This document shows, piece after piece, positions 3,708-60,480 of a stretch of 64,000 bases of DNA. The position numbers were made by a program, and so were the translations under genes. Positions within the stretch are counted from its first letter, which is position 1, and each line of letters begins with the position of its first letter. A model generated the notes under the pieces. That model did no database searches, had not been told where the DNA came from, and worked only from the letters and a program-made list of their open reading frames with translations. The stretch spans positions 1,508,509-1,572,508 of the forward strand of contig OY760142.1 in assembly GCA_963663225.1 (NCBI GenBank), given 5' to 3'. Source of the DNA: Nitrospirota bacterium. GTDB taxonomy: Bacteria > Nitrospirota > UBA9217.

Positions 3708-4292
3708 TTGCCGAATTCTTCCACAACATACTACGATGATGATGAATTACGCGAAGCGCTGACTCTGGTCAATTCGTACAGGACGCTTCACGAAATTTAC
3801 GGGTTATTTTACGGCTGCATGGCTGCGGCAAAACGCGTGGATTCCTCGCAGTACCTGCCTCTGGTGTACGATGTGGACACCGAAGACAACATATCGGCGG
3901 AAAACAGCGAGAAGGTTCACAACAATCTCATATCTCTCTGGAATTTTGTCGCGCGCTGGAAGCCGCAGGATGAGCCATTTTCTTTTCCCGATCAGGTCTA
4001 TTCCGACACTGCCCAGGGGCTGCTTGAGCATGCGGCCGATGATATGGCGCTGATAGAATATTTTAAAAAAGGGCTTGAAATGGCAGGCATGCCTCAGTCG
4101 CCCGCGATTGCAACTGCGATGCGCGATCTTGATGCTGTTACAGGCCAACTACAGCATTATGCCGAAATGTATGAAGCCGTGGATCCGGAAGCGGAGGTAA
4201 AAAACCTAAAAGCATCTGAACAGAAATTTGAAGAACTGGAAGAGGCCATAGCCCGCAGCATAGCCAGAATAACCATGGTGAAAAAAAAATAG
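3708..4292 (+). CDS. UPF0149 (YgfB/YecA-like) family protein, TTG start
   Basis: About 190 aa, with LHEIYGLFYGCMAAAKRVDSSQYLPLV resembling the YgfB N-terminal motif. Weak by-eye similarity. Confidence 0.4.
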   Translation: MPNSSTTYYDDDELREALTLVNSYRTLHEIYGLFYGCMAAAKRVDSSQYLPLVYDVDTEDNISAENSEKVHNNLISLWNFVARWKPQDEPFSFPDQVYSDTAQGLLEHAADDMALIEYFKKGLEMAGMPQSPAIATAMRDLDAVTGQLQHYAEMYEAVDPEAEVKNLKASEQKFEELEEAIARSIARITMVKKK

Positions 4293-38497: not shown

Positions 38498-39853
38498 ATG
38501 AACAGCACGAACCTGAAGAAAATACTCATTGCCTGCATTATTTGTTCAGTATCCATCCTGGCACTGCCTGCTTATGCGGAAGATGAACCTCTTGCGTACT
38601 CCCTGTCCTTCACGGACGCAGAACTGGATGACCTGCTTGCGCCTATCGCGCTCTATCCCGATCCCTTGCTGGCGCAGATGCTGCCTGCTTCCACGTATCC
38701 AACAGAAATAATTGACGCGGATGAATGGCTTCGAAGCGGAGGCACGGTGGCAGGTATTGACGGCCAGAACTGGGACGAATCCGTCAAGGCAATTGCCCAC
38801 TATCCCGACGTCCTGAGGATGATGGCCGACAATATGGACTGGACCGCCAATCTGGGCGATGCTTTTTTGAACCAACCTGAGGATGTGTCAAGATCAATCC
38901 AGCATCTGAGGCGGCAGGCAAGAGACATGGGCAACCTGTCCAGTAATGATAAACAGAGTGTGGACATTCTTGAAGAAGGCAACATCGAAATCATTCCTGC
39001 TCAGCCGCAGTATGTGTATGTCCCGGTGTATGATCCTACCGTCGTGTATTTCAGGCGGCCGTCGCTGAGCATTCCGCCATTTATACTCTTCGGTCCTCCA
39101 TTTCTCCTCGGCGGATGGCTCATCATGGATTTTAACTGGGGGCACCATGAGGTGATTTATCATGGCTGGAACCGTCCCGGCTGGGTCAATCATGCAAGAC
39201 CGTATGTACACGTGACGAATGTATATGTTAACAGAAGCAGGCCCGCCATTCAGCAGCGATGGAGGCATGATGCATCTCACGGCGACCCTGCAAAATATCT
39301 TATGACGCGGCCCAGTGGTCCGAAAGCAGACAGCTACTCCCGTATCGGCGAAGTCAGGGGAAAAGCCGTTGTTACACAACCCAAACCGGCCGGAAGGCTG
39401 TTCGATTCCAAGTCCGGTGTTCACACATATAGTAATCGCGGCAGGGAGAGCCGCGGCATAGTGCAGCAGCAAACGTCTCCATCGGCAATGCCCGGCACCA
39501 GTCCGCGAAGGACCATTCCGACGCCCCGCGTGAACGAGCGACCGACGGCACCTGCTCCCGCAGTTAGTCAACCGGTCCAGAAACCTGCTCAGCAGAGACC
39601 GGCAGGAATCAGCAGTGATAAAAAAATGACGAGCGGCACCGGACCTGCTCGTGAGGCACCACAAACCATAAAGCGGCCTTCGACCGCTTTCGGAGGTTAC
39701 CGCGGTGCAGACGAGGCCAGAGCACAGAGTATGCGCGGCCAGACCAGCCGTCAGAGCAGCGCAGGCGGTGCTTCATCTACCGTCCACCCGCCAAATCGGG
39801 GCGGCAATCCTCCCGCAGGCGGGCATTCATCGGGAGAAAAGCAACGTCGATAA
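38498..39853 (+). CDS. secreted DUF3300-family protein
   Basis: Signal peptide. LLAPIALYPDPLLAQMLPASTYPTEI motif typical of DUF3300. Pro/Ser/Ala-rich C-terminal tail. Confidence 0.55.
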   Translation: MNSTNLKKILIACIICSVSILALPAYAEDEPLAYSLSFTDAELDDLLAPIALYPDPLLAQMLPASTYPTEIIDADEWLRSGGTVAGIDGQNWDESVKAIAHYPDVLRMMADNMDWTANLGDAFLNQPEDVSRSIQHLRRQARDMGNLSSNDKQSVDILEEGNIEIIPAQPQYVYVPVYDPTVVYFRRPSLSIPPFILFGPPFLLGGWLIMDFNWGHHEVIYHGWNRPGWVNHARPYVHVTNVYVNRSRPAIQQRWRHDASHGDPAKYLMTRPSGPKADSYSRIGEVRGKAVVTQPKPAGRLFDSKSGVHTYSNRGRESRGIVQQQTSPSAMPGTSPRRTIPTPRVNERPTAPAPAVSQPVQKPAQQRPAGISSDKKMTSGTGPAREAPQTIKRPSTAFGGYRGADEARAQSMRGQTSRQSSAGGASSTVHPPNRGGNPPAGGHSSGEKQRR

Positions 39854-39905: not shown

Positions 39906-40874
39906 ATGGCGACAAAGACCGGCAAGAAAACATTCCAGAATACTGCGCACGCGGTTGCTTTATTTATAATATGTGCGGCAATAATCACGATCGGGAGCAT
40001 GTCGGTTACAGCGCAACCAACGCAGCAGGTATTCTCGTCTCCGGAGGATGCATTGAAAGAATTGGCAGCGGCAGTTAAAACGAAAGACAAAACCGCGCTT
40101 GCCCGCATATTCGGGCCGTCCGGAGAAGAACTGCGCGCTACTGACGCGGTGCAGGCTGCCGCTGAATTCGAAGAATTTTCGAAATTATTGACGATGAAGG
40201 CAAGCTTGGTTAAAGAGAATGAGTCGAAAGTGGTCCTTTATATAGGAAATGAAAACTGGCCGTTTCCAATCCCGCTGATTAAAACGAACAATCAGTGGGT
40301 TTTTGATACAGAAGCAGGGAAAGAAGAAATTTTGAACCGCAGAATTGGCGAGAACGAGCTGACGGCCATCCTGGTTTGCCGTTCCTATGTAAAAGCCCAG
40401 CGTGAGTACGTACTGAAAGACTGGGATGGTGATGGAATTTTGGCGTACGCACAGAAGCTCCGGAGCGATCCGAACAAAAAGAACGGCCTCTTCTGGAAAC
40501 GGGTTCCGGGCGAACCGGTAAGCCCTCTTGGTGAACTCGTGGCGCAGGCCCGGATGGAGGGATACCGGAAGGAAAAGTCGTTATTTAAAGAAGAGCCGGT
40601 GCCTTTTCACGGCTATTACTTTAACATCCTCACGAAACAGGGCAAACGCGCACCGGGAGGGAAATATAGTTACATTGTAAATGGAAATATGGTCGGGGGA
40701 TTTGCTCTTGTTGCCTTTCCGGCGGACTGGGGCAAATCGGGAGTAATGACTTTTATTGTGAATCAACAAGGCAAGGTGTACCAGAAAAATCTCGGAGAAG
40801 AAACTCTGAAGATGGCCTCGAAAATGAAGATATACGATCCTGACGAGACATGGGCACTCGTTAAGGGCCAATAA
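39906..40874 (+). CDS. secreted DUF2950-family protein
   Basis: Signal anchor. GGFALVAFPADWGKSGVMTFIVNQQGKVYQKNLG motif typical of DUF2950. DUF3300 and DUF2950 proteins commonly sit side by side. Confidence 0.55.
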   Translation: MATKTGKKTFQNTAHAVALFIICAAIITIGSMSVTAQPTQQVFSSPEDALKELAAAVKTKDKTALARIFGPSGEELRATDAVQAAAEFEEFSKLLTMKASLVKENESKVVLYIGNENWPFPIPLIKTNNQWVFDTEAGKEEILNRRIGENELTAILVCRSYVKAQREYVLKDWDGDGILAYAQKLRSDPNKKNGLFWKRVPGEPVSPLGELVAQARMEGYRKEKSLFKEEPVPFHGYYFNILTKQGKRAPGGKYSYIVNGNMVGGFALVAFPADWGKSGVMTFIVNQQGKVYQKNLGEETLKMASKMKIYDPDETWALVKGQ

Positions 40875-41270: not shown

Positions 41271-41299
41271 TTGACAGGTGGCCTTTAAGAAGCTACAAT
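41271..41299 (+). promoter_or_regulatory. sigma70-type promoter: TTGACA-N17-TACAAT
   Basis: Consensus -35 (41271-41276) and near-consensus -10 (41294-41299) with a 17-nt spacer. AAAGGAGG RBS and ATG follow at 41319. Confidence 0.55.
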
Positions 41300-41318
41300 T
41301 TCCCCTAAAGGAGGTATT

Positions 41319-42575
41319 ATGAGGAAAATCGTCATATGCGCCAGCCTGCTGTTCGTAATCCTTCTTGCGTATTCTGCTTCCCCTGCCTACTCAAAGTCAA
41401 GCCAGCCCCAAATTAACGCTTGTGTTGCGTGTCATACCAGCGACCAAACCTTAAAGAAGCTGTTCATACCCCCCAAGGTCCAGGCCTCGGAAGGAGAAGG
41501 GTGAGCAGGGGTGCCACCGTCAGTTCCGGCGGAACTGATGTACAAGGCGTTCCTGGTTGACAAGGATTTGCTTGATCAGGACGCGCATTTTTCAGAAGGT
41601 TGCAGCCCGTGCCACAAAGGCAATGAAAAAGGAAAAGGCAAGGAAGGGGCACACCGCGGCATGGTAAAACGGCCGTCAGATAATCTTGCTGTCTGCGGAA
41701 AATGCCATGAGGATACTTCGCAGCATTACAAAACAGCTCTTCACTATACCTCAGCAGGCCAGATGCATGGAGTCAAGGCGAGATTCAATGAGAAGGAATT
41801 CAAAGCATTTGATCAGAAAGTCTTTGGAAAATCCTGCAGGAGCTGCCATGCATCCTGCGGAGATTGCCATGTAAAATCTCCATCCATAGGAGGCATCGGA
41901 ACAGGATTTATCAAGGGGCACCAGTTCGTAAAACGTGATGAAGGAAAAACATGCGGTATCTGCCACGGAGGCAGAGTGTATCCGGAATACACCGGCGACT
42001 ATGGCGGCTCAGCAGACGTCCATTACCAGAAAGGAATGCTCTGTCTGGACTGCCATAAAAAATCGGAACTGCATGGCAATGGTACGGCTTATCAAGGAAG
42101 AAAGGAAGTCCAGGGACGGCCTGCCTGCGTTCAATGCCATCCCCGGGGCAGTGAAAAAACGGACACCTCGAAGACCGCCCATGTCCAGCATGGAGACAAG
42201 GTGAGTTGCTATGCGTGCCATTCAGGGGGAACCTACAGAAACTGCTACGACTGCCACCTTGGGAAGGGTGCATCATCAAAACCCGGCTTTATCCTGGGAA
42301 TAGATCCACAGAATAAAAAAACCGTTACTACCCTGAGACTGATACCAACCGTACGGGACACATTCAAACCGGCAGGAATTTCTATGGCAGGTTTTGATGC
42401 GCTCCCGAACTACTGGGGCACGTCGCCTCACAATATCAAAAAGCGCACCGAACGCACCCGGTCGTGTGACGTGTGCCATCAGGAGCACAAGGATTTTCTG
42501 ACAAAAGAAGGATTGATACCAAACGGTTCCAAGGCGAATGAAGGCCTAATTTATGACTTTAAACTCAATAAATAA
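41319..42575 (+). pseudogene. secreted undecaheme c-type cytochrome interrupted by one in-frame TGA (41502-41504). It is either a nonsense or sequencing lesion, or a Sec/readthrough codon.
   Basis: Track ORFs 41319..41504 (signal peptide plus CVACH) and 41511..42575 (10 further CxxCH motifs, no signal peptide) share a frame and are separated only by TGA-GCA-GGG. Confidence 0.6.
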
Positions 42576-42589
42576 AAGGAGGATGCTTA

Positions 42590-43485
42590 TGATCAGGAAA
42601 CGTATGCTGCAAATGCTGGTGTTGGTTCTTATTGTGATGCTGGTGCCCGTGGTGGCGGCAGCACGGGATGCCGCCCCGATTGTATCAACAGACTGGCTCG
42701 AAAAGAACCTGAAAAACAACAATGTGGTGATTATCGATATTCGGAAGGTGGAAGAATACAAGGCAGGCCACATTCCCGGAGCGGTTAATGCGGTCTATGG
42801 AACATGGGCGATTATGAAGGGTGGCCTGAGAAATGAGCTGCCCGCAGCAGATGACTTGTTTGATGCAATTGGTGCCGCAGGTATTGAGCCGACATCAAGC
42901 GTGGTTGTCGTAGGGAATGTTGAAACAACACCCGATCGCACCGATGTTACGAGAGTTGCTTGGACACTCAAGTACGCAGGCATTGAAAATGTTGCACTGC
43001 TCGATGGTGGTTATAAAAAATGGTTGGCGGATAAAAAGACGATATCTACCGACGTGGTGAAAGCAAAAACAAAAACATACAAAGGAAAAATCAATGCCAA
43101 TCTTTTTACGAACAAAGACTATGTGTTAAGCCAACTTGGTAAGGCAACAATTGTCGATGTCAGGGAAAAAGATTTTTACGAGGGCAAGAAAAAATTCGAT
43201 TTTGTAGCTAAAGCAGGAAGAGTCCCCGGCGCAAAGAATTTGCCCACCTCACTTCCTTATACAAAAGAGGGGACATTCAAGGACAAAGCAGAACTTACTG
43301 CGATTGCGGCGAATGTTGTGGGAACCGATGTATCAAAAGAAATAATCACCTATTGTGATACAGGCAAAGTATGTTCAGCCTGGACATTCTTGCTGTCTGA
43401 AGTCCTTGGATACAAGAATGTAAAGGATTACGACGGTTCTATGGAAGAATGGACAAAAGATCCTAAGGCTCCGTTCGAACCGTAA
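42590..43485 (+). CDS. periplasmic tandem-rhodanese sulfurtransferase (thiosulfate/3-mercaptopyruvate sulfurtransferase-like)
   Basis: Signal peptide. Two rhodanese modules, the second with active-site Cys in YCDTGKVCSA. AGGAGG RBS. Confidence 0.8.
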
Positions 43486-43530: not shown

Positions 43531-43730
43531 TCCACCTGCGCTTAGTCCTCAGCGCCATCCTTCTCCGTGTCTTTTGCCACGATGCTTTCCAGCCCCAAAA
43601 TACGCCTTTTATAGCCGAAACAGGTATTGCACAAGAAAAATTAAAGTATTAAATACCCATTTCGGGCGATTTACTTTCACGGAAGACTATGGTATGTCAT
43701 CTGTTAACGATATTGAAGAGGGCATACGAG

Positions 43731-44504
43731 ATGAAAAATGATGGTGAATTTACGCAAGACGGTACCGAACAAAGAAAACATACCCTGCTAATTCTCGACA
43801 GAGAGCCGCAAGAACTTATTCGAATGTCAAAGCTCTTTGAGCGAATAGGTTATCAAACCGCTACAGCTAGGATGGGTTGCGAGGCATTCAAGACAGTAAA
43901 GAAGATAATTCCAAACCTGATTCTTACTGCGATGGACCTTGAAGATATGAGTGGAATTGCATTCATTAGTCAGCTCAGCCAAAACAGAAAAACAGAACAT
44001 ATTCCAATCGTTGTTTTGAAAGGTCCCCAGGATCTTGCCAGGGAACAAGATTATCTTGGCGCTGGCGCAGCGGTTTGCCTGTGTAAGTCGTCTTCGATCG
44101 AAACGATGTATCAAACAATGCAGAGACTCCAGAAGAAAGAATTGCGGGAAAAAATCCGCATTCAAACGCATCACCCTGTTAAGATTGAGACTGCCCCGTT
44201 CTGCGATCATTATGGCATGCACACACTGACGTTATCGGAACGGGGGATGTTTCTTTTCAGCAGGGTGCATGCCCCTGAAAATACCAGGCTTGCGCTCCGT
44301 ATTAATCTACAAGGACTTATCATTGCGGCCGAAGCCAGGGTTTTGTACAATGGCCGGTCACGACGTAGTTCTCATCAGGAGCCCGGGTTAGGGCTTGAAT
44401 TTATTACTATTGGACCTCAAGACCGGGAATGCATACGGACATTCATAAACAATGAAATAATGAAAGACATTCAGCCGAAAATTAGCCTGCAGCTATCTGC
44501 TTGA
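43731..44504 (+). CDS. response-regulator receiver + PilZ domain protein (paralog 4, unlinked to the tandem trio)
   Basis: Same fold order as the trio. REKIR and LSERG motifs. Start uncertain (track ORF starts at 43689). Confidence 0.6.
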   Translation: MKNDGEFTQDGTEQRKHTLLILDREPQELIRMSKLFERIGYQTATARMGCEAFKTVKKIIPNLILTAMDLEDMSGIAFISQLSQNRKTEHIPIVVLKGPQDLAREQDYLGAGAAVCLCKSSSIETMYQTMQRLQKKELREKIRIQTHHPVKIETAPFCDHYGMHTLTLSERGMFLFSRVHAPENTRLALRINLQGLIIAAEARVLYNGRSRRSSHQEPGLGLEFITIGPQDRECIRTFINNEIMKDIQPKISLQLSA

Positions 44505-47201: not shown

Positions 47202-48188
47202 ATGAAAAGTCTGGTAAGCGTGCTTTGCATTGTAGTGCTCACAGTTGTTTTTACCGTACCTTCATTTGCAGCGGACAAGGACCAATATCCTTCTAAGGTA
47301 ATAACAATCATTGTGCCATTCTCCGCTGGGGGACCGTCAGACACGGTAGCCCGTCTGCTCGCTCAGGCCATGGGACCGGTCCTCAAGACGCAGATTATTG
47401 TTGAAAATGTCGGTGGTGCGGGTGGAACCATTGGAGCCGCCAGGGTTGCCCAGGCTTCGCCCGATGGATATACGCTCTTTGTGCATCATATCGGTCATTC
47501 CACGGCCCCGGCACTTTATCGCAAACTGCCTTACGACCCTATCAGGGATTTTGAACCGATCGGACTGGTCAATGATGGAGCAATGGCTCTGGTGGCCAGA
47601 AAAAATTTTCCTGCAGACAACCTCAAGGAACTGATCACCTATGTAAAAGCCAACAAGGACAAAGTCAATCTGGCCAATGCGGGCGTAGGCTCCGCTTCGC
47701 ATTTGTGCGGGATACTTTTTATGTCCGCCATCCAGACGGACTTCATGACTATTCCGTATAAGGGAACGGGACCGGCCATGAACGACCTTCTCGGCGGCCA
47801 GGTGGATTTCATGTGCGACCAGACGACGAATGCCACGAGCCATATCAAAGCCGGAAAAGTCAGGGTGTATGGCGTGACCACGAAAAAACGAATCGATTCC
47901 ATGCCGAATGTTCCTACGATGAGTGAGGCGGGCCTTCCGAATTTTACGATAACCGTCTGGCATGCCCTGTATGCACCGAAAGGCACGCCAAAACCGATTA
48001 TTGCGAAGCTCTCAAAGGCTTTGCAGGAGGCACTGAAGAACCCCGTCTTAAAACAACGGTACGCCGATCTGGGCTCCGAACCTGTTGCGCAGAACCGCGC
48101 GACTCCCGAGGCCCTCAGAGCTCATCTCAAGGCTGAAATCAATAAATGGGGACCGATCATAAAAAAAGCAGGTGTGTTCGCAGATTGA
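47202..48188 (+). CDS. tctC: tripartite tricarboxylate transporter substrate-binding protein (TctC/Bug family)
   Basis: Signal peptide. PYKGTGPAMNDLLGGQVD motif. Confidence 0.8.
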   Translation: MKSLVSVLCIVVLTVVFTVPSFAADKDQYPSKVITIIVPFSAGGPSDTVARLLAQAMGPVLKTQIIVENVGGAGGTIGAARVAQASPDGYTLFVHHIGHSTAPALYRKLPYDPIRDFEPIGLVNDGAMALVARKNFPADNLKELITYVKANKDKVNLANAGVGSASHLCGILFMSAIQTDFMTIPYKGTGPAMNDLLGGQVDFMCDQTTNATSHIKAGKVRVYGVTTKKRIDSMPNVPTMSEAGLPNFTITVWHALYAPKGTPKPIIAKLSKALQEALKNPVLKQRYADLGSEPVAQNRATPEALRAHLKAEINKWGPIIKKAGVFAD

Positions 48189-48203
48189 TCTGGGGAGGGT
48201 GGT

Positions 48204-48665
48204 TTGAGACATATAGTGCGCAACACAAAAGATTTCTGGATCGGCCTCATCTATATCGCTATCGGATCTGCTGCCCTCATAATCAGCAGAGACTATGGCA
48301 TGGGTACGGCGGTGAGGATGGGGCCGGCCTATTTCCCCATCATACTCAGCGTTCTTTTGGTTACGATCGGGATAATTTCACTTATTCGTTCATTTCTTAA
48401 ACCAGGCGGTCCTGTCGGCGACTTTGCATGGAAAGGCTTTTTCTTCGTCATCGCGTCGACCATCCTGTTCGGTTTTATCGTTCGGGGAGCAGGATTGCTT
48501 ATTGCGTTGCCTCTCCTGATAATCATCAGCTCCTGCGCAAGCACCCGTTTTCGCTGGCAGTACTCGCTGGCGTTGGCAGCCGGTGTGACCGTATTTTGCA
48601 TTTTGGTATTTCAAAAAGGGCTGGGAGTTCCGATTCCCATTGTGGGGCCATGGTTCGGACAATAG
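48204..48665 (+). CDS. tctB: tripartite tricarboxylate transporter small permease TctB
   Basis: 153 aa, 4 TM, sitting between tctC and tctA. Confidence 0.6.
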   Translation: MRHIVRNTKDFWIGLIYIAIGSAALIISRDYGMGTAVRMGPAYFPIILSVLLVTIGIISLIRSFLKPGGPVGDFAWKGFFFVIASTILFGFIVRGAGLLIALPLLIIISSCASTRFRWQYSLALAAGVTVFCILVFQKGLGVPIPIVGPWFGQ

Positions 48666-48796
48666 CATTGGGAGGAGGACGCTCCGGCCAGCATCGGGAT
48701 TTTAACTTAAAGCATGGACAGCTGGATTTTTTGAAAAATTAAAAACTGGACGCTCGTGAAAATTCTAAGCGGAAGTGCTGAACGTAGCGAGGGACT

Positions 48797-50296
48797 ATGG
48801 ATCTGATTGCCAATATTGGTTTGGGTCTGTCGACCGCATTAACGCCGACCAATCTGCTGTATTGTCTTATAGGTGTTTTTCTCGGAACCCTGATTGGGGT
48901 GCTGCCAGGACTTGGGCCGACCGCAACGATTGCGATGCTGCTGCCTGTCACCTTTACGTTGCCGCCGGTTTCCGCACTCATCATGCTTGCTGGCATCTAT
49001 TACGGCTCCCAATACGGTGGGTCTACAACATCCATTCTGGTCAATGTTCCGGGAGAGGCCGCTTCCGTAGTCACAGCGCTCGACGGATATCAGATGGCGC
49101 GCAAGGGACGTGCCGGAGTTGCCTTGGCTACCGCAGCAATCGGTTCCTTCTTTGCCGGCACGGTTTCGACAATCATCCTCGCTCTGTTTGCCCCGCCTCT
49201 GGCTGCTATTGCGCTTAAGTTTGGTCCTGCGGAATTTTTCTCTCTCATGGTTCTGGGACTCCTCGCTTCGATGGTCCTTGCGAGGGGATCGCTGCTGCAT
49301 GCTACCGGAATGGTTGTTCTGGGACTGCTTCTGGGGCTGGTTGGGGCGGATGTCAACACCGGCACCCAGCGGTTTACCTTTGGCATACCGCAACTTGCTG
49401 ATGGCATCGGATTTGTGGTGGTTGCCATGGGCATGTTCGGCCTCGCGGAGATCATCCGCAACCTGGAGCATGAGGAGCAGCGATCAACAATCGTGAACAA
49501 AATTTCGAGTCTGATGCCGACCAGAGAGGACTGGAAACGCATCGTAGGTCCGATTCTGCGCGGAACCGGGATCGGGTCAGCGCTCGGCATACTTCCCGGT
49601 AGCGGTTCCATTCTGGGGTCGTTTGCAGCGTATGCCATAGAAAAAAAAGTTTCGAAGCACGGCAAGGAATTCGGAACAGGGGCGATTGAGGGTGTTGCTG
49701 CACCGGAGTCGGCGAACAATGCCGGGGCCCAGACTTCCTTCATCCCGATGCTTACCCTGGGCATTCCTTCGAATCCTGTGATGGCGCTCATGATTGGAGC
49801 GATGATCATTCAGGGGATTCAGCCCGGTCCTTCCGTGATCAACGAACAGCCGGTATTGTTTTGGGGCATCATCGTTTCCATGTGGATCGGCAACCTCTTT
49901 CTTGTCATTCTTAACCTGCCTATGATCGGCATGTGGGTGCGCATTGTAAGCGTGCCCTATCAACTCCTTTTTCCGGCGATCCTGGTGTTCTGCGGCATCG
50001 GCGTATTCAGTTTGAATAATACCGAATTCGATATTTACCTCATGGCGTTGTTCGGCCTGCTCGGCTATATCTTCGTCAAATTGGACTGCGAGCCTGCTCC
50101 CATGCTGCTGGCGTTCATTCTTGGTCCGTTGATGGAGGAGTATATGCGCCGGGCGTTGCTGCTCTCGCGCGGCGATCCGATGATATTCCTTACGCGTCCG
50201 ATCAGCGCTACGCTGCTCGCGCTCGGCGCGCTCGCAATCGTTGCGGCCAGCCTCCCGATTTTTTATAAAAAACGCGAAGAAACATTTCGTGAATAG
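48797..50296 (+). CDS. tctA: tripartite tricarboxylate transporter large permease TctA
   Basis: 499-aa polytopic protein with TctA-type N-terminus MDLIANIGLGLSTALTPTNLLYCLIGVFLGTLIGVLPGLGP. Confidence 0.85.
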   Translation: MDLIANIGLGLSTALTPTNLLYCLIGVFLGTLIGVLPGLGPTATIAMLLPVTFTLPPVSALIMLAGIYYGSQYGGSTTSILVNVPGEAASVVTALDGYQMARKGRAGVALATAAIGSFFAGTVSTIILALFAPPLAAIALKFGPAEFFSLMVLGLLASMVLARGSLLHATGMVVLGLLLGLVGADVNTGTQRFTFGIPQLADGIGFVVVAMGMFGLAEIIRNLEHEEQRSTIVNKISSLMPTREDWKRIVGPILRGTGIGSALGILPGSGSILGSFAAYAIEKKVSKHGKEFGTGAIEGVAAPESANNAGAQTSFIPMLTLGIPSNPVMALMIGAMIIQGIQPGPSVINEQPVLFWGIIVSMWIGNLFLVILNLPMIGMWVRIVSVPYQLLFPAILVFCGIGVFSLNNTEFDIYLMALFGLLGYIFVKLDCEPAPMLLAFILGPLMEEYMRRALLLSRGDPMIFLTRPISATLLALGALAIVAASLPIFYKKREETFRE

Positions 50297-50521: not shown

Positions 50522-50956
50522 ATGAAAATACTGACAACGCCCAGAATGGAACGGTGCATCGGGTGCCATTCCTGCTCCCTGGCCTGTGCACGGCTGGTAC
50601 ACAAACGGCTGTCCTGGGACACTGCCGGTATTCGCATATCCTCATCCGGAGGACTCTCAACGGGATTTGAGGCCCGGACGTGCGTTGCCTGTGACCCAGC
50701 GCCGTGCGCCGCAGCCTGCCCTACAGGTGCATACTCGCAACGGAAAGACGGTGGCGTCATCGTGCGGAAAAATCTCTGCATACGATGCGGTGCATGCGAA
50801 CGGGCCTGCCCCGTGGACGCGATTTACCGTGATTTCACCGGCGAGCCTTTTGTGTGCATCCACTGCGGCCGCTGCGTTCCGTTCTGTCCGCACGACTGCC
50901 TTGAGTTGGGGGAAGCCGGAACCAGAACAGCGGCGGAGAAGGGGGCGGCGTCATGA
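50522..50956 (+). CDS. 4Fe-4S dicluster ferredoxin, probable electron-transfer partner of AOR
   Basis: CIGCHSCSLAC, CVACDPAPCAAACP, CIRCGACERACP and CIHCGRCVPFCP motifs. Stop overlaps the AOR start (ATGA). Confidence 0.75.
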   Translation: MKILTTPRMERCIGCHSCSLACARLVHKRLSWDTAGIRISSSGGLSTGFEARTCVACDPAPCAAACPTGAYSQRKDGGVIVRKNLCIRCGACERACPVDAIYRDFTGEPFVCIHCGRCVPFCPHDCLELGEAGTRTAAEKGAAS

Positions 50957-52692
50957 TCAGAAATCAATTCAGGGTGCTTGTTGTTGATCTGGCCACCGGG
51001 AAGGGCAACATCATCATGGTTGACGGAAGAGACAGCGTGGCCGGCGGCAGCGGACTTGCGGCGCTTTTGTTCGGCAAGTATGGCTATCCGGATCGTCCGT
51101 GGAGCGACGCGGAACAGCCGCTTATTTTTGCTATCGGTCCGCTTACCGGCTACTTTCCGCTCATGAGCAAGACCGTATGTGCGTTCAAGTCGCCATATCA
51201 CGACCAGTATGCCGAAAGCCACGGCGGCGGCCGTTCCGCACTTTCACTCCGTTTTGCCGATCTGGACGCGCTCGTGATTACGGGCAAGGCCGCGCGACCG
51301 TCCGCCTTGTCGGTGGGATCACGGCACTTGGAAGTAAAAGAAGTCCACTATCTCTGGGGCAAGGATCTTTTTTATACCGGGAAAATGCTGCGCAAAATGT
51401 TCACCGGTACAGGACATCGGAGCATTCTGCGCATCGGACCCGCGGGTGAGACCGGCTCTGCCATGGCAGGCATCAATGTGGATTCCTACCGCCATTTCGG
51501 CAGGCTCGGCGGCGGCGCGGTCATGGGCAACAAGAACCTGAAAGCTATTGTGATACAGGGTGACGGAAGTTTTCCTCTCATGGACTCCACGGAGTATCCG
51601 AAGCTGTTCCAAGAAGTCCATACCAAACTGACGGATACGGACATGATGAGCAAATACCACAATCTCGGTACGCCGGTGAATGTTGCGGTGCTGAATCAGA
51701 TCAAGGCGCTCCCTATCCGCAACCTTCAGCAGACTTTCGATCCGGACATCGGCGGTATTACCGGAGAAAAGTTTGCAGAGGCGGCGCTGCTCAGAAATGC
51801 CGCGTGTTCCGGCTGCCCTGTGGGGTGCATTCATATTGGTTTTGTCCGGGAACGATTCCAGGAAGAGAACCAGTATCTCTACCGTCAGGTTCCGTATGAC
51901 CATGAACCGATTTTTGCCGTGGGAGCCATGCTTTCGGTTAAAAACTGCTTTGCAGTGCTCGGGCTTCTTGACGTGGTGGAGAAGATGGGGCTCGATGTAA
52001 TGTCTGCCGGCGTAGCGCTTGCGTGGGCGACGGAAGCCATGGAAAAAGCCCTCATCACCACGCGGGAGACCATCGTTCCTCTTGCATTCGGCAACACGGA
52101 AGGATACAAAAAAGCAGTGGAGCATCTCGCGTACGGTTCGAATGAGTTTTATCGGATTCTCGCGCAGGGAACTCTGAAGGCGGCAGAACACTATGGCGGA
52201 AAAGATTTTGCCTGTGTCCTTGGGCAAGAAATGGGCGGATACGCAACCGGCGAGGTTTTCTTTACATCTCAGGCGCTCGGGTTCCGGCACTCCCATCTCG
52301 ACACGGCTGGATATACATACGATCAGAAGCAGACGGACAAAGATGTTCCGAAAGCTGTGGACTTTTTGATCAAAGACGAGCAGGGCCGAGTGTTTCTTAC
52401 GTCCATGGTTTCCTGTCTTTTTGCCCGCAATGTATATTCAGATGATTTGCTCGCAGCCTGCTTAAAATCAGTAGGCTACAGCACGCTTGCTGACAACATC
52501 GGTGCGGTCTCACGAAGCATACAGGCGCTCCGCTGGAAGACTCGTTTAGCGACCGGGTTCAAACCGGAAACAGTGACTATACCAAAACGTTTTTCAGAAC
52601 TGACTACCTGGAAAGGGTCGATTGATACTGCGTACATGCAGGGACTCATGAATGCCTATAGCCAGCGTATTCTTGCGTTGGGCAGGGAGTAA
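50953..52692 (+). CDS. aldehyde:ferredoxin oxidoreductase family (tungstopterin) enzyme
   Basis: AOR N-terminal domain (FRVLVVDLATGK...GGSGLAALLF) and a C-terminal domain with an Fe-S Cys pattern (CSGCPVGC). 579 aa. Confidence 0.85.
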   Translation: MIRNQFRVLVVDLATGKGNIIMVDGRDSVAGGSGLAALLFGKYGYPDRPWSDAEQPLIFAIGPLTGYFPLMSKTVCAFKSPYHDQYAESHGGGRSALSLRFADLDALVITGKAARPSALSVGSRHLEVKEVHYLWGKDLFYTGKMLRKMFTGTGHRSILRIGPAGETGSAMAGINVDSYRHFGRLGGGAVMGNKNLKAIVIQGDGSFPLMDSTEYPKLFQEVHTKLTDTDMMSKYHNLGTPVNVAVLNQIKALPIRNLQQTFDPDIGGITGEKFAEAALLRNAACSGCPVGCIHIGFVRERFQEENQYLYRQVPYDHEPIFAVGAMLSVKNCFAVLGLLDVVEKMGLDVMSAGVALAWATEAMEKALITTRETIVPLAFGNTEGYKKAVEHLAYGSNEFYRILAQGTLKAAEHYGGKDFACVLGQEMGGYATGEVFFTSQALGFRHSHLDTAGYTYDQKQTDKDVPKAVDFLIKDEQGRVFLTSMVSCLFARNVYSDDLLAACLKSVGYSTLADNIGAVSRSIQALRWKTRLATGFKPETVTIPKRFSELTTWKGSIDTAYMQGLMNAYSQRILALGRE

Positions 52693-59031: not shown

Positions 59032-60480
59032 ATGAAAGAAGTTCGGAAAAAATCGTTTGATGCGGCCACCAATGAGATGCTTATCAAGGCCCATCGCTCA
59101 AAGACGGAAGTGATCTGGGACCGTGCTGACGCAATGCAGCCCCAGTGTGGTTTTGGACGCATGAACATCTGCTGCAGCGACTGTTCTGAAGGTCCCTGCC
59201 GGGTGAACCCGTTTGCCGACGTTCCGCAGCAGACGATATGCGGACGGACGCAGGCAGATCTGGTTTCCGGAAGTTTTCTGAAGCAGGCTGCGGACGGAGC
59301 GGTTGCTTTTGCCGGCCTGGGACTTGAGTTTAATGCAAAGCTGGACGCTCGTGCGCTGCAGACGGTATGCACGACCAGGGACAGTATGCTCGCTCCCGCG
59401 GATTATTCCTTCCGGGTATCGGAAATCGGCCAGACGGTTGCAAAGACATTGCAGGCGATCCGTGAGGTCAAGGAACAGGTATATGGAAAAACGGAACCCA
59501 AGGTTGTGGCAGCAAATATGGGCGCGCTGAAAGCCGATGCCGCAAACATTGTGCTGCTCGGCCATACGGCGCCCCAGCTTGTTCAGGCGGTCGTGAATGC
59601 CGCTTCAAAGCATGCGGTCCCGTGTAATGTCGTGGCTCTGTGCGGTGGTGAAGCGAACGGCGGGCTTCCGGTATTGACGAATTACGACTCGCAGGAAATG
59701 CCGCTGCTGACTGGAGCGGTTGATCTGCTGATTACCGGTTCGCAGTGTGTCATGCCGGCGACCGTGTCCTTGGCGAAAACCAGGAAGGTGGCACTGCTCG
59801 CTGCATCCGCATTGAATGATGAAAAGAAAATTAAAGAAGCTGTTGAAACGGCCGCACAGGCTTTCCAGCAGCGGCGTGGAAAAGATGTTCAAATTCCGGG
59901 TGCAGTGGAGCAGGTGAACTCGGGATTCACGGCGGCGAACAGCAAACAGGCATTTAAAGCATTGCAAACGGCAACCGCCAAGGGTGCTCTCAAGGGAATG
60001 GTCTATCTCGGCGGATGCGGTAATATCGCGCAGACCCAGGATGCCCGGATCGTCCAGACGGCCGAAAAACTGCTCGCGGATGGATATGTGCTTGTTACCG
60101 CCGGCTGTGCGGGCGCAGCTCTGGCAAAGGCGGGCATGTGCCGTCAGGAATATGCGGCGAGGGAAGGATTGAAGAACATCGCGGAGCTCAATCTTCCTCC
60201 GGTGCTTCATATCGGGGCTTGCCACGATGCCGATTGGTTCCTTGAGATGGCCAGGGACGCTAAAACAAACGGCGTGCCTGTTTTTGTCGTTCTGCAGGAA
60301 ATCAACCACAACAAGGTTCTGGCAACTGCCGTTGCCTTTGCCTCACAGGGATTAAAAACCTATGTTGATATGGGCGAAGCGGCAAGCCTTCCCGGGCTGA
60401 AACTGCCGGGGGAATTGCTTCCGCTGGCAGAATTGCCGCAGTTGATGCCGAAGCCGGCAGCCGTTGCCGCCGCACGATAA
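59032..60480 (+). CDS. cooS: Ni-CODH catalytic subunit family (CooS-like), compact 482-aa form
   Basis: N-terminal QPQCGFGRMNICCSDCSEGPCRVNP (CooS B/D-cluster motif). Segments matching C-cluster ligand regions (LKADAANIVLLGHT, ALCGGEA, GSQCVMP, LGGCGNI, TAGCAGA, PPVLHIGACHD). Confidence 0.7.
   Translation: MKEVRKKSFDAATNEMLIKAHRSKTEVIWDRADAMQPQCGFGRMNICCSDCSEGPCRVNPFADVPQQTICGRTQADLVSGSFLKQAADGAVAFAGLGLEFNAKLDARALQTVCTTRDSMLAPADYSFRVSEIGQTVAKTLQAIREVKEQVYGKTEPKVVAANMGALKADAANIVLLGHTAPQLVQAVVNAASKHAVPCNVVALCGGEANGGLPVLTNYDSQEMPLLTGAVDLLITGSQCVMPATVSLAKTRKVALLAASALNDEKKIKEAVETAAQAFQQRRGKDVQIPGAVEQVNSGFTAANSKQAFKALQTATAKGALKGMVYLGGCGNIAQTQDARIVQTAEKLLADGYVLVTAGCAGAALAKAGMCRQEYAAREGLKNIAELNLPPVLHIGACHDADWFLEMARDAKTNGVPVFVVLQEINHNKVLATAVAFASQGLKTYVDMGEAASLPGLKLPGELLPLAELPQLMPKPAAVAAAR

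Follow-up and report, generated by a model that had tools for sequence, protein, structure and literature searches.

An apparently undescribed family of undecaheme c-type cytochromes with a probable selenocysteine encoded by an in-frame UGA

Does the TGA codon at positions 41502–41504 of this 64-kb stretch of DNA (hereafter the window, to which all position numbers refer) end a gene, or is it decoded within one? On the forward strand, one frame runs from an ATG at 41319 to a TAA at 42573–42575, with that TGA as its sole internal stop. The TGA alone separates two open reading frames (ORFs) of this frame, whose starts are 192 nt apart. The first (41319–41504, 61 aa) starts with MRKIVICASLLFVILLAYSASPAYS followed by K, which resembles a signal peptide, and carries the heme motif CVACH; the second (41511–42575, 354 aa) lacks a signal peptide and contributes ten CxxCH motifs. 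Counted from the TGA itself, a hydrophobic leader and one CxxCH are found in the 61 residues upstream, and ten CxxCH without a leader in the 356 residues downstream. The local context is ...KVQASEGEG-TGA-AGVPPSVPAELMYKAFLVDK..., the residues after the TGA being AGVPPSV. Joining the ORFs across the TGA gives a read-through product of 418 residues, with eleven CxxCH motifs at residues 35, 95, 126, 173, 180, 212, 242, 270, 297, 309 and 383. An earlier note on this DNA had described this arrangement, which we confirmed from the sequence, and had listed a nonsense mutation, a sequencing error and a recoded codon as explanations. We propose that the UGA is very probably decoded as selenocysteine (Sec), as residue 62. 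With almost as much assurance, 41319–42575 appears to be a single functional gene for an exported undecaheme c-type cytochrome, whose UGA would be recoded by a selenocysteine insertion sequence (SECIS) hairpin located 15–30 nt downstream, inside the ORF. This assignment follows from the standard bioinformatic criteria for selenoproteins, namely the exclusive use of UGA, a SECIS-like structure, the existence of Cys homologues and host lineages that use Sec.

We searched the read-through product against 5.8 billion proteins, which yielded 579 homologues. Among the best 120 of these 579, all but seven are calls of ~346 aa that start at or near 'MYKAFLVDK', just past the TGA column. Two of the seven full-length homologues show a Trp at that column, and their contigs read TGA; the Trp arose because the gene call applied genetic code 4 to this codon. 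Both public records (P0032, L081 162–1385; P0075, L082 51–1313) come from short contigs for which a metagenomic caller chose code 4, a database artefact that could conceal further selenoproteins. At the DNA level, tblastn matched both halves of the gene in 80 species-representative genomes, crossing the codon in one frame, and this codon is TGA in 79 of them and CGA in one. The carriers include Syntrophorhabdaceae, Syntrophaceae/Smithella, 'Syntrophus aciditrophicus' metagenome-assembled genomes (MAGs), Geobacter sp. OR-1, a Pelobacter MAG, Desulfonema magnum and Spirochaetes-labelled bins. The TGA is present in the complete genome of D. magnum (CP061800), in Geobacter sp. OR-1 and in Desulfitibacter alkalitolerans. 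The earlier attribution of the DNA to Desulfobacterota is uncertain, as the nearest genome (L001, 96% identity) is a MAG labelled Nitrospiraceae.

The codon is also conserved among far more distant relatives. A hidden Markov model search of 1.84 billion cluster representatives delineated a superfamily of 1163 relatives, many of which are ten-heme calls of ~370 aa devoid of a leader and starting with '..PYEKVFV'. In all four such records that we checked (L087–L090, one of them from the isolate Desulfitibacter alkalitolerans), a small upstream ORF ends at an in-frame TGA, the contexts being SEGEG-TGA-AKAM, TEGEG-TGA-GGPLAPLEPYEK and GGGGG-TGA-GVAAPQLEG. For a distant clade, with ~35% identity to the window protein, a metagenome scan yielded 80 loci. 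Upstream DNA is included in 71 of them, and all 71 code for a signal peptide, a CxxCH motif and then xGEG-TGA-GG. Of 157 distinct N-terminal segments, 148 have U at the column and seven have C, with two additional Cys one column off. Among the aligned loci of both clades, the in-frame UGA thus sits at one column and is never TAA or TAG. In the window, TGA terminates 7 of the 21 Pfam-supported genes; as it is an ordinary terminator there, the genetic code is the standard one and the recoding is local.

These data bear directly on two simple explanations. A recent GGA-to-TGA nonsense mutation would have left a pseudogene with a dead, GTG-initiated downstream product, in keeping with the split into two ORFs, the second of which has no signal peptide. 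However, the TGA stands at the same column in all but one of the 80 genomes and in every one of the 71 distant-clade loci, both flanks of the codon are under strong purifying selection with all eleven CxxCH motifs invariant in the family, and the ortholog alignment called for by the earlier note never shows Gly at this column. As to a sequencing or assembly error at 41502, it is an a priori possibility and nothing more; the TGA recurs in independent assemblies produced by many projects and technologies, including the complete genomes L040, L053 and L056. Conservation of the TGA over ~150 independent loci from several phyla thus excludes, for practical purposes, both the pseudogene and, even more firmly, the sequencing error. 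Similarly, the 35–96% identity spread of the orthologues excludes copies of a single contaminating sequence.

The earlier note had also argued that the position of the codon in a linker speaks against a catalytic Sec. In fact, no stretch of the N-terminal module is better conserved than E-G-E-G-U-(A/G)-G, even between clades that share ~35% identity elsewhere, and it is therefore not a neutral linker. Cys is found at the Sec column in distant full-length homologues, namely P0136, P0164, P0270–P0277, P0284, P0286 and P0304. The corresponding motifs, SSSCGGEAPP, VESCGGxPPP, GGCGAPPPNIP and xxCWAxELP, occur in distant subfamilies only.

Bacterial SECIS elements of the fdhF type are hairpins inside the ORF whose apical loop presents a G/U ~20 nt past the UGA. 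In the 39 nt from the UGA, the clade of the window shows the pattern UGA GCN GGN NNN CCU CCG YCN GUN NNG GCG GA. It forms a hairpin, CCGYC/GGCGG, often extended by a U-A pair, with a six-base loop NGUNNN whose GU is invariant at +22/+23, counted from the U of the UGA. In the window, the hairpin spans 41517–41532 on the forward strand (CCGUC/GGCGG, loop AGUUCC), with the GU at 41523–41524. Over the 80 distinct sequences of this clade, 95.6% of the pair cells are standard, compared with 30–56% when the partners are slid by 1–3 columns. Six cells are compensatory double changes, e.g. C-G to U-A in L050 and L057 and G-C to U-A in L078, and RNAalifold recovered the identical helix. The synonymous sites of the hairpin are frozen (Pro CCT in 74/79 sequences, the next Pro CCG in 72/79 and the 3'-arm Ala GCG in 62/62), while the two Ala codons just 5' of it use all four codons.

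In the distant clade, a hairpin is found at the same distance from the UGA but is made of other bases (GGAGCC-GUU-GGCUCC, GGCUCC-GUU-GGAGCC, GGCGCC-GUU-GGCGCC or CCCCUC-AGUUA-GAGGG). There, 94.6% of the cells are paired, as opposed to 29–45% after sliding, and 37 double-change cells are distributed over four of the seven pairs (pair 17–27: AU 28, CG 19, GC 2; pair 18–26: GC 43, UA 13). The loop GU falls inside a Val codon in one clade and across Pro/Gln-Leu codons in the other. As it occupies different codon phases, it is conserved as RNA, not as protein. In P0044, which has the Tyr codon TAC in place of TGA, the 3' arm of the hairpin is broken. Both clades thus possess a stem-loop of conserved structure 3' of the UGA, with its apical-loop G(U) within the range of ~16–37 nt. 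Like the Escherichia coli fdhF SECIS, it lies within the coding sequence directly 3' of the UGA, with an apical-loop G-U ~20 nt away; in contrast, its conserved stem is shorter (5–7 bp), and a bulged U was not identified. An Rfam scan of the window gave no match, Rfam having no model to score a bacterial SECIS hairpin. We rejected as the SECIS a 10-bp hairpin at 41518–41540 (GGC loop), which is the minimum-free-energy fold of RNAfold (z −2.6), since its pairing across the family, 53.8%, is no better than in shuffles. It overlaps the conserved hairpin in the window and in the nearest relatives, where it might extend that hairpin in a lineage-specific manner or compete with it.

Gene callers annotate nearly all records as two genes, i.e. 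a small exported monoheme peptide and a separately translated decaheme protein. The second part, however, has neither a signal peptide, nor a ribosome-binding site, nor a conserved start, and the callers place its start on a Met, Val or Leu, at positions that differ between records. As c-type heme attachment requires export (cytochrome c maturation), the ten hemes of a second ORF without a signal peptide could not be attached unless the UGA is read through. Moreover, the frame is always continuous, and the homologues with Cys or with Arg, Tyr, Ser or Ala at the column are single polypeptides. We therefore consider a natural split into two genes to be extremely improbable.

Two observations count against Sec decoding, and they are also what speaks for a read-through independent of Sec, in which the hairpin would stimulate near-cognate decoding of the UGA (as Trp, Arg, Cys or Gly) or regulate a mix of the 61-aa monoheme peptide and the full-length protein. 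First, no selA, selB, selD or tRNA-Sec was found in the window (tRNA and Rfam scans were empty; 20 large ORFs were analysed with Pfam). Second, in the closest non-Sec homologues (55–58% identity), the Sec is replaced by Arg (CGA), Tyr, Ser or Ala and not by Cys, an uncommon pattern for a redox Sec; these residues are thus tolerated, and the lone CGA variant is one step from TGA. The gene order of these non-Sec relatives differs (cytochrome, ~665-aa cytochrome, rhodanese), and they may be diverged paralogues. Against Sec-independent read-through stand the canonical bacterial SECIS layout, whose loop GU keeps a distance of ~21–23 nt to the UGA in both clades, which differ in codon phase, the replacement by Cys in distant homologues and the exclusive use of TGA. 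The host lineages also include known Sec users, with 19 selenoproteins counted in Syntrophus and 8 in Geobacter (PMC1794560); a literature search on Sec usage in D. magnum returned nothing useful. The earlier note had left selenocysteine and programmed read-through side by side. The hairpin covariation, the Cys homologues and the exclusive TGA favour the former, and only a small chance is left to the latter in its Sec-independent form.

We next consider the protein that Sec decoding would yield. Eleven CxxCH motifs, a hydrophobic leader and matches above threshold to Pfam Cytochrome_C7 and Cytochrom_c3_2 identify it as a multiheme c-type cytochrome. No Cys outside the CxxCH motifs is conserved in the alignment of the cytochrome family. 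Of the His outside these motifs, only nine are conserved, two short of the number that would give every heme a conserved distal His. The tandem motifs of hemes 4 and 5 (CRSCH-AS-CGDCH, 41835–41870, forward strand) are invariant, and in a profile alignment to PDB 1sp3, heme 4 aligns with heme 2, the active-site heme of the octaheme tetrathionate reductase (OTR; TIGR04315) of Shewanella oneidensis. We modelled P0032, a homologue of the TGA type, with AlphaFold, the code-4 Trp serving as a placeholder for Sec. With 51 close sequences, the model was unusable (predicted local distance difference test score, pLDDT, 57), whereas 145 diverse sequences gave a pLDDT of 87 and a predicted template modelling score of 0.82. 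A Foldseek search of the PDB found nothing significant, the top match being 1sp3 (E 0.026). We describe the architecture as an OTR-like undecaheme core to which an N-terminal Sec module is joined.

OTR has 8 hemes, compared with 11 here, and it has no counterpart of the N-terminal heme-1/Sec/heme-2 module or of part of the C-terminal beta domain. Conversely, the segment of OTR with Lys56 and Cys64 has no Cys equivalent in the present family. OTR is not known to pair with a rhodanese. Membership in the OTR family was rejected, since TIGR04315 gives 18–20 bits or no match at all, for a cut-off of 375, and the protein does not have the eight hemes of that family. TIGR04315 does have Sec-containing members (PMC13188914).

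The cytochrome gene is followed by a gene for an exported tandem-domain rhodanese, i.e. a sulfurtransferase, at 42589–43485 on the same strand (PF00581 matches twice, E 6e-36), with a ribosome-binding site, AAGGAGG, read from the sequence at 42576–42582. The protein harbours the rhodanese domain and its catalytic Cys loop; its scores do not reach the equivalog cut-offs of SseA and ExtH. A rhodanese gene lies directly downstream of the cytochrome gene in 69 of 81 loci and is its only conserved neighbour; it is adjacent again in the distant clade. All 71 of 71 orthologues retain the active-site Cys (YCDTG). One homologue, P0067 (632 aa, on a 3-kb Logan contig), appears as a cytochrome-rhodanese fusion, which supports a functional link but could be an assembly or stop-codon artefact. 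Several truncated cytochromes among the JGI rows go by the name 'thiosulfate/3-mercaptopyruvate sulfurtransferase', apparently an annotation error in which the name was carried over from the adjacent rhodanese.

A Sec-containing multiheme cytochrome encoded near a rhodanese has a precedent in Geobacter sulfurreducens. The prediction of MccSep (ExtKL, GSU2937–2936) dates from 2007 (PMC1914089), and in 2026 the protein was demonstrated to be the sulfur reductase long sought in Geobacter, a polysulfide reductase essential for S0 respiration (PMC13510729). Its Sec325 belongs to a C-terminal Ig-like domain, Cys239 ligates one of its five hemes (PMC13510729; PDB 9wt8), and its gene cluster also encodes the rhodanese-like ExtH. 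Like MccSep, the present protein is a periplasmic (predicted) multiheme c-type cytochrome with one putative Sec, whose in-frame UGA is annotated as separating two ORFs and is closely followed by a SECIS-like hairpin. In both cases, a rhodanese-like gene belongs to the cluster and Cys-type homologues exist. By analogy with the sulfur/selenium chemistry performed by MccSep, chemistry of the same type may be proposed here. In contrast, the present family has 11 hemes rather than 5, its Sec62 is in an N-terminal heme module (EGEGU) rather than at position 325 in a DGUP motif, and it is devoid of a conserved non-heme Cys, whereas MccSep needs its heme-ligating Cys239. Membership in MccSep/ExtKL was rejected, given an E of 0.33 for the profile against the 9wt8 chains, no match to NF040886 and the different architecture.

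Regarding function, we tentatively propose, at slightly less than even chances, that the cytochrome depends on its Sec to reduce sulfane or S-S sulfur, which the rhodanese would supply. The cytochrome would be exported by means of its signal peptide and loaded with its eleven hemes in the periplasm, SelB having inserted Sec62 co-translationally at the SECIS. Under selenium shortage, translation would stop after the 61-aa leader peptide. The exported rhodanese would carry sulfane sulfur (derived from polysulfide, thiosulfate or tetrathionate), and possibly selenium as well, as a persulfide on its invariant Cys and pass it to the selenolate of Sec62. Electrons from the eleven-heme chain would then reduce the resulting Se-S adduct, and sulfide would be released. 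The exported rhodanese partner suggests that the substrate is sulfane sulfur presented as a Cys persulfide, and the OTR-like core, the MccSep precedent and the lifestyle of the carriers agree with it; Desulfitibacter and Dethiobacter reduce sulfur, thiosulfate or polysulfide. The substrate may be polysulfide, tetrathionate, thiosulfate or selenite. As to the Sec, it might act as an unligated nucleophile close to heme 4, the OTR-like one, or coordinate heme 1 on its distal side, for which the count of conserved ligands leaves room. The logic would resemble, on a different scaffold, that of MccSep with ExtH and that of the Sud/Psr system of Wolinella succinogenes, in which a periplasmic rhodanese-like polysulfide-sulfur transferase, Sud, feeds the polysulfide reductase Psr. 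By this analogy, an exported rhodanese would give sulfane sulfur to a respiratory reductase; unlike Psr, which is a molybdopterin enzyme, the present protein is a cytochrome.

Several points weigh against a Sec-dependent reductase of this kind. The candidate substrate is deduced only from a neighbouring gene and a distant fold similarity. The Sec loop has a pLDDT below 50 in the AlphaFold model, and the window has no membrane quinol-oxidising partner beside the cassette. Since the family has no conserved non-heme Cys, the Sec/Cys-heme mechanism of MccSep cannot apply as such.

Alternatively, Sec62 could be the sixth (distal) ligand of heme 1 and tune its potential, and the cytochrome would only shuttle electrons to another reductase, e.g. 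the ~665-aa multiheme protein. Such a role would fit the eleven CxxCH motifs with only nine conserved non-motif His; between hemes 1 and 2, H90 is the sole other conserved ligand candidate. The ~665-aa cytochrome gene follows the cassette in 21/81 loci and adjoins the non-Sec variants. Nevertheless, Sec is costly and is normally retained only for chemistry, and what the cassette pairs with the cytochrome is a sulfurtransferase; the ~665-aa cytochrome has no gene in the window. Furthermore, the His/Cys-ligated hemes of TsdA, SoxAX and MccSep are themselves catalytic (PMC13510729). We thus consider a purely electron-shuttling cytochrome unlikely. As in the His/Cys-ligated hemes of TsdA and SoxAX, a chalcogen nucleophile would be placed by or on a c-type heme for S-S chemistry, and the ligand bookkeeping permits a Sec-ligated heme. 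Unlike the present protein, TsdA and SoxAX use Cys and one or two hemes and are mainly oxidases; the comparison is one of analogy only (PMC13510729). Going further than the Sec-dependent reductase proposed above, one may speculate that Sec62 as the distal axial ligand of heme 1 and the rhodanese together form the catalytic centre of an unrecognised, widespread class of periplasmic sulfur- or selenium-respiring enzymes. We regard this as doubtful, if somewhat less so than the shuttling role. If true, it would be the first natural His/selenocysteinate-ligated c-type heme, and syntrophs, Chloroflexota and Firmicutes would gain an electron sink for polysulfide, thiosulfate or tetrathionate that is now hidden by annotation.

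We also looked for a place for this family among those already described. The best named sequence matches are ExtN, ExtM and ExtO (NF040967, NF040943 and NF040968), which belong to the 'selenite/tellurite reduction operon' of Geobacter and are clustered with ExtH and ExtKL. Their scores of 38–45 bits, for cut-offs of 200–800, indicate at best a distant kinship among multiheme cytochromes, and membership was rejected. The same applies to the GSU2203 decaheme and GSU2204 CXXCH families (NF041028 and NF041027): relatives reach 28 bits for a cut-off of 325 (NF041028), and the window protein gives no match. More generally, no NCBIfam model matches any member of the family above threshold. In the May 2026 catalogue of prokaryotic selenoproteins, the cytochrome-type entries are only ExtKL, the GSU2204 family and the Sec forms of TIGR04315 (PMC13188914; also PMC9312934). 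Our searches of full-text literature on selenocysteine with multiheme, rhodanese or cytochrome, which left out subscription-only literature, did not find the present family described. As neither NCBIfam models, nor catalogues, nor full-text literature account for these cytochromes, they apparently form an undescribed selenoprotein family. Judging from the sequences, it is distributed over syntroph lineages of the Desulfobacterota type, Geobacter/Pelobacter, Desulfonema, Firmicutes, Chloroflexota and Spirochaetota bins. Recoding of a UGA in this way is textbook knowledge; the novelty concerns the family, its breadth and its architecture, in which an OTR-like undecaheme core carries a Sec module at its N-terminus. 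The family would join the short list of Sec-containing cytochrome-type families and is structurally unrelated to MccSep.

Nearly all public records present these cytochromes as a truncated 'cytochrome c3 family/hypothetical' protein without a signal peptide. Hence a periplasmic redox enzyme that is probably functional goes unnoticed when the metabolism of Syntrophorhabdaceae, Smithella, Syntrophus, Chloroflexota, Firmicutes and sediment MAGs is reconstructed, and selenoproteome censuses undercount. The pairing with a rhodanese provides a testable hypothesis, namely that sulfane sulfur is reduced by a second route built on Sec and heme, and the cultured carriers Desulfitibacter alkalitolerans, D. 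magnum and Geobacter sp. OR-1 make it experimentally tractable.

Upstream of the coding sequence, the earlier note had reported a strong promoter and a ribosome-binding site, and both sequences are there. The sigma-70-like promoter TTGACA-N17-TACAAT (41271–41299, forward strand) matches the consensus at 11/12 positions and is the top site between 40800 and 43800, as judged by consensus match only. The ribosome-binding site AAAGGAGG (41307–41314, same strand), read from the sequence, contains GGAGG at 41310–41314 and lies 4 nt upstream of the ATG. Residues 1–25 (41319–41393) are predicted, by eye, to be a signal peptide of the general secretory type, cleaved between AYS and K; a hydrophobic leader begins every N-terminal module among the homologues. 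The heme-1 motif CVACH (41421–41435), within the Sec-bearing N-terminal module, corresponds to a CxxCH that is invariant in the 157 distinct N-terminal segments, and the UGA itself (41502–41504) is part of the motif S-E-G-E-G-U-A-G, as assigned from codon conservation and the alignment column. In one MAG locus (L059, ~3850–3980), the N-terminal module before EEGEG-TGA is out of frame, which might reflect a frameshifted pseudogene or an assembly error.

Beyond the rhodanese, the gene neighbourhoods vary. The gene for the ~665-aa multiheme cytochrome comes after the rhodanese gene in Sec-type loci and between the cytochrome and rhodanese genes in the Arg/Tyr/Ser/Ala-type loci; further copies were seen at L083 7258–9309, L085 7305–9314 and L086 2414–4411. 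In Desulfitibacter alkalitolerans (L089, KK211102.1, 8384–9860), the genes that come after the pair of Sec-cytochrome and rhodanese encode a multi-4Fe-4S protein and a Ni_hydr_CYTB-type cytochrome b, which plausibly form a quinol-oxidising module in the membrane and feed the cytochrome. The window contains neither the ~665-aa cytochrome gene nor the 4Fe-4S/cytochrome b pair.

In the window, genes for an exported DUF3300 protein with a Pro-rich tail (38498–39853) and a DUF2950 protein (39906–40874) lie immediately upstream of the cytochrome gene on the same strand, a pair that is not conserved beside the cytochrome in other loci. A response-regulator receiver-PilZ fusion is encoded just downstream of the rhodanese gene (43689–44504). 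Farther downstream, the window codes for a TctC/TctA tricarboxylate transporter (47202–50296), an aldehyde:ferredoxin oxidoreductase of the tungsten-type AOR family (50953–52692) and a prismane/hybrid-cluster-like protein (59032–60480), which fits with an anaerobic host.

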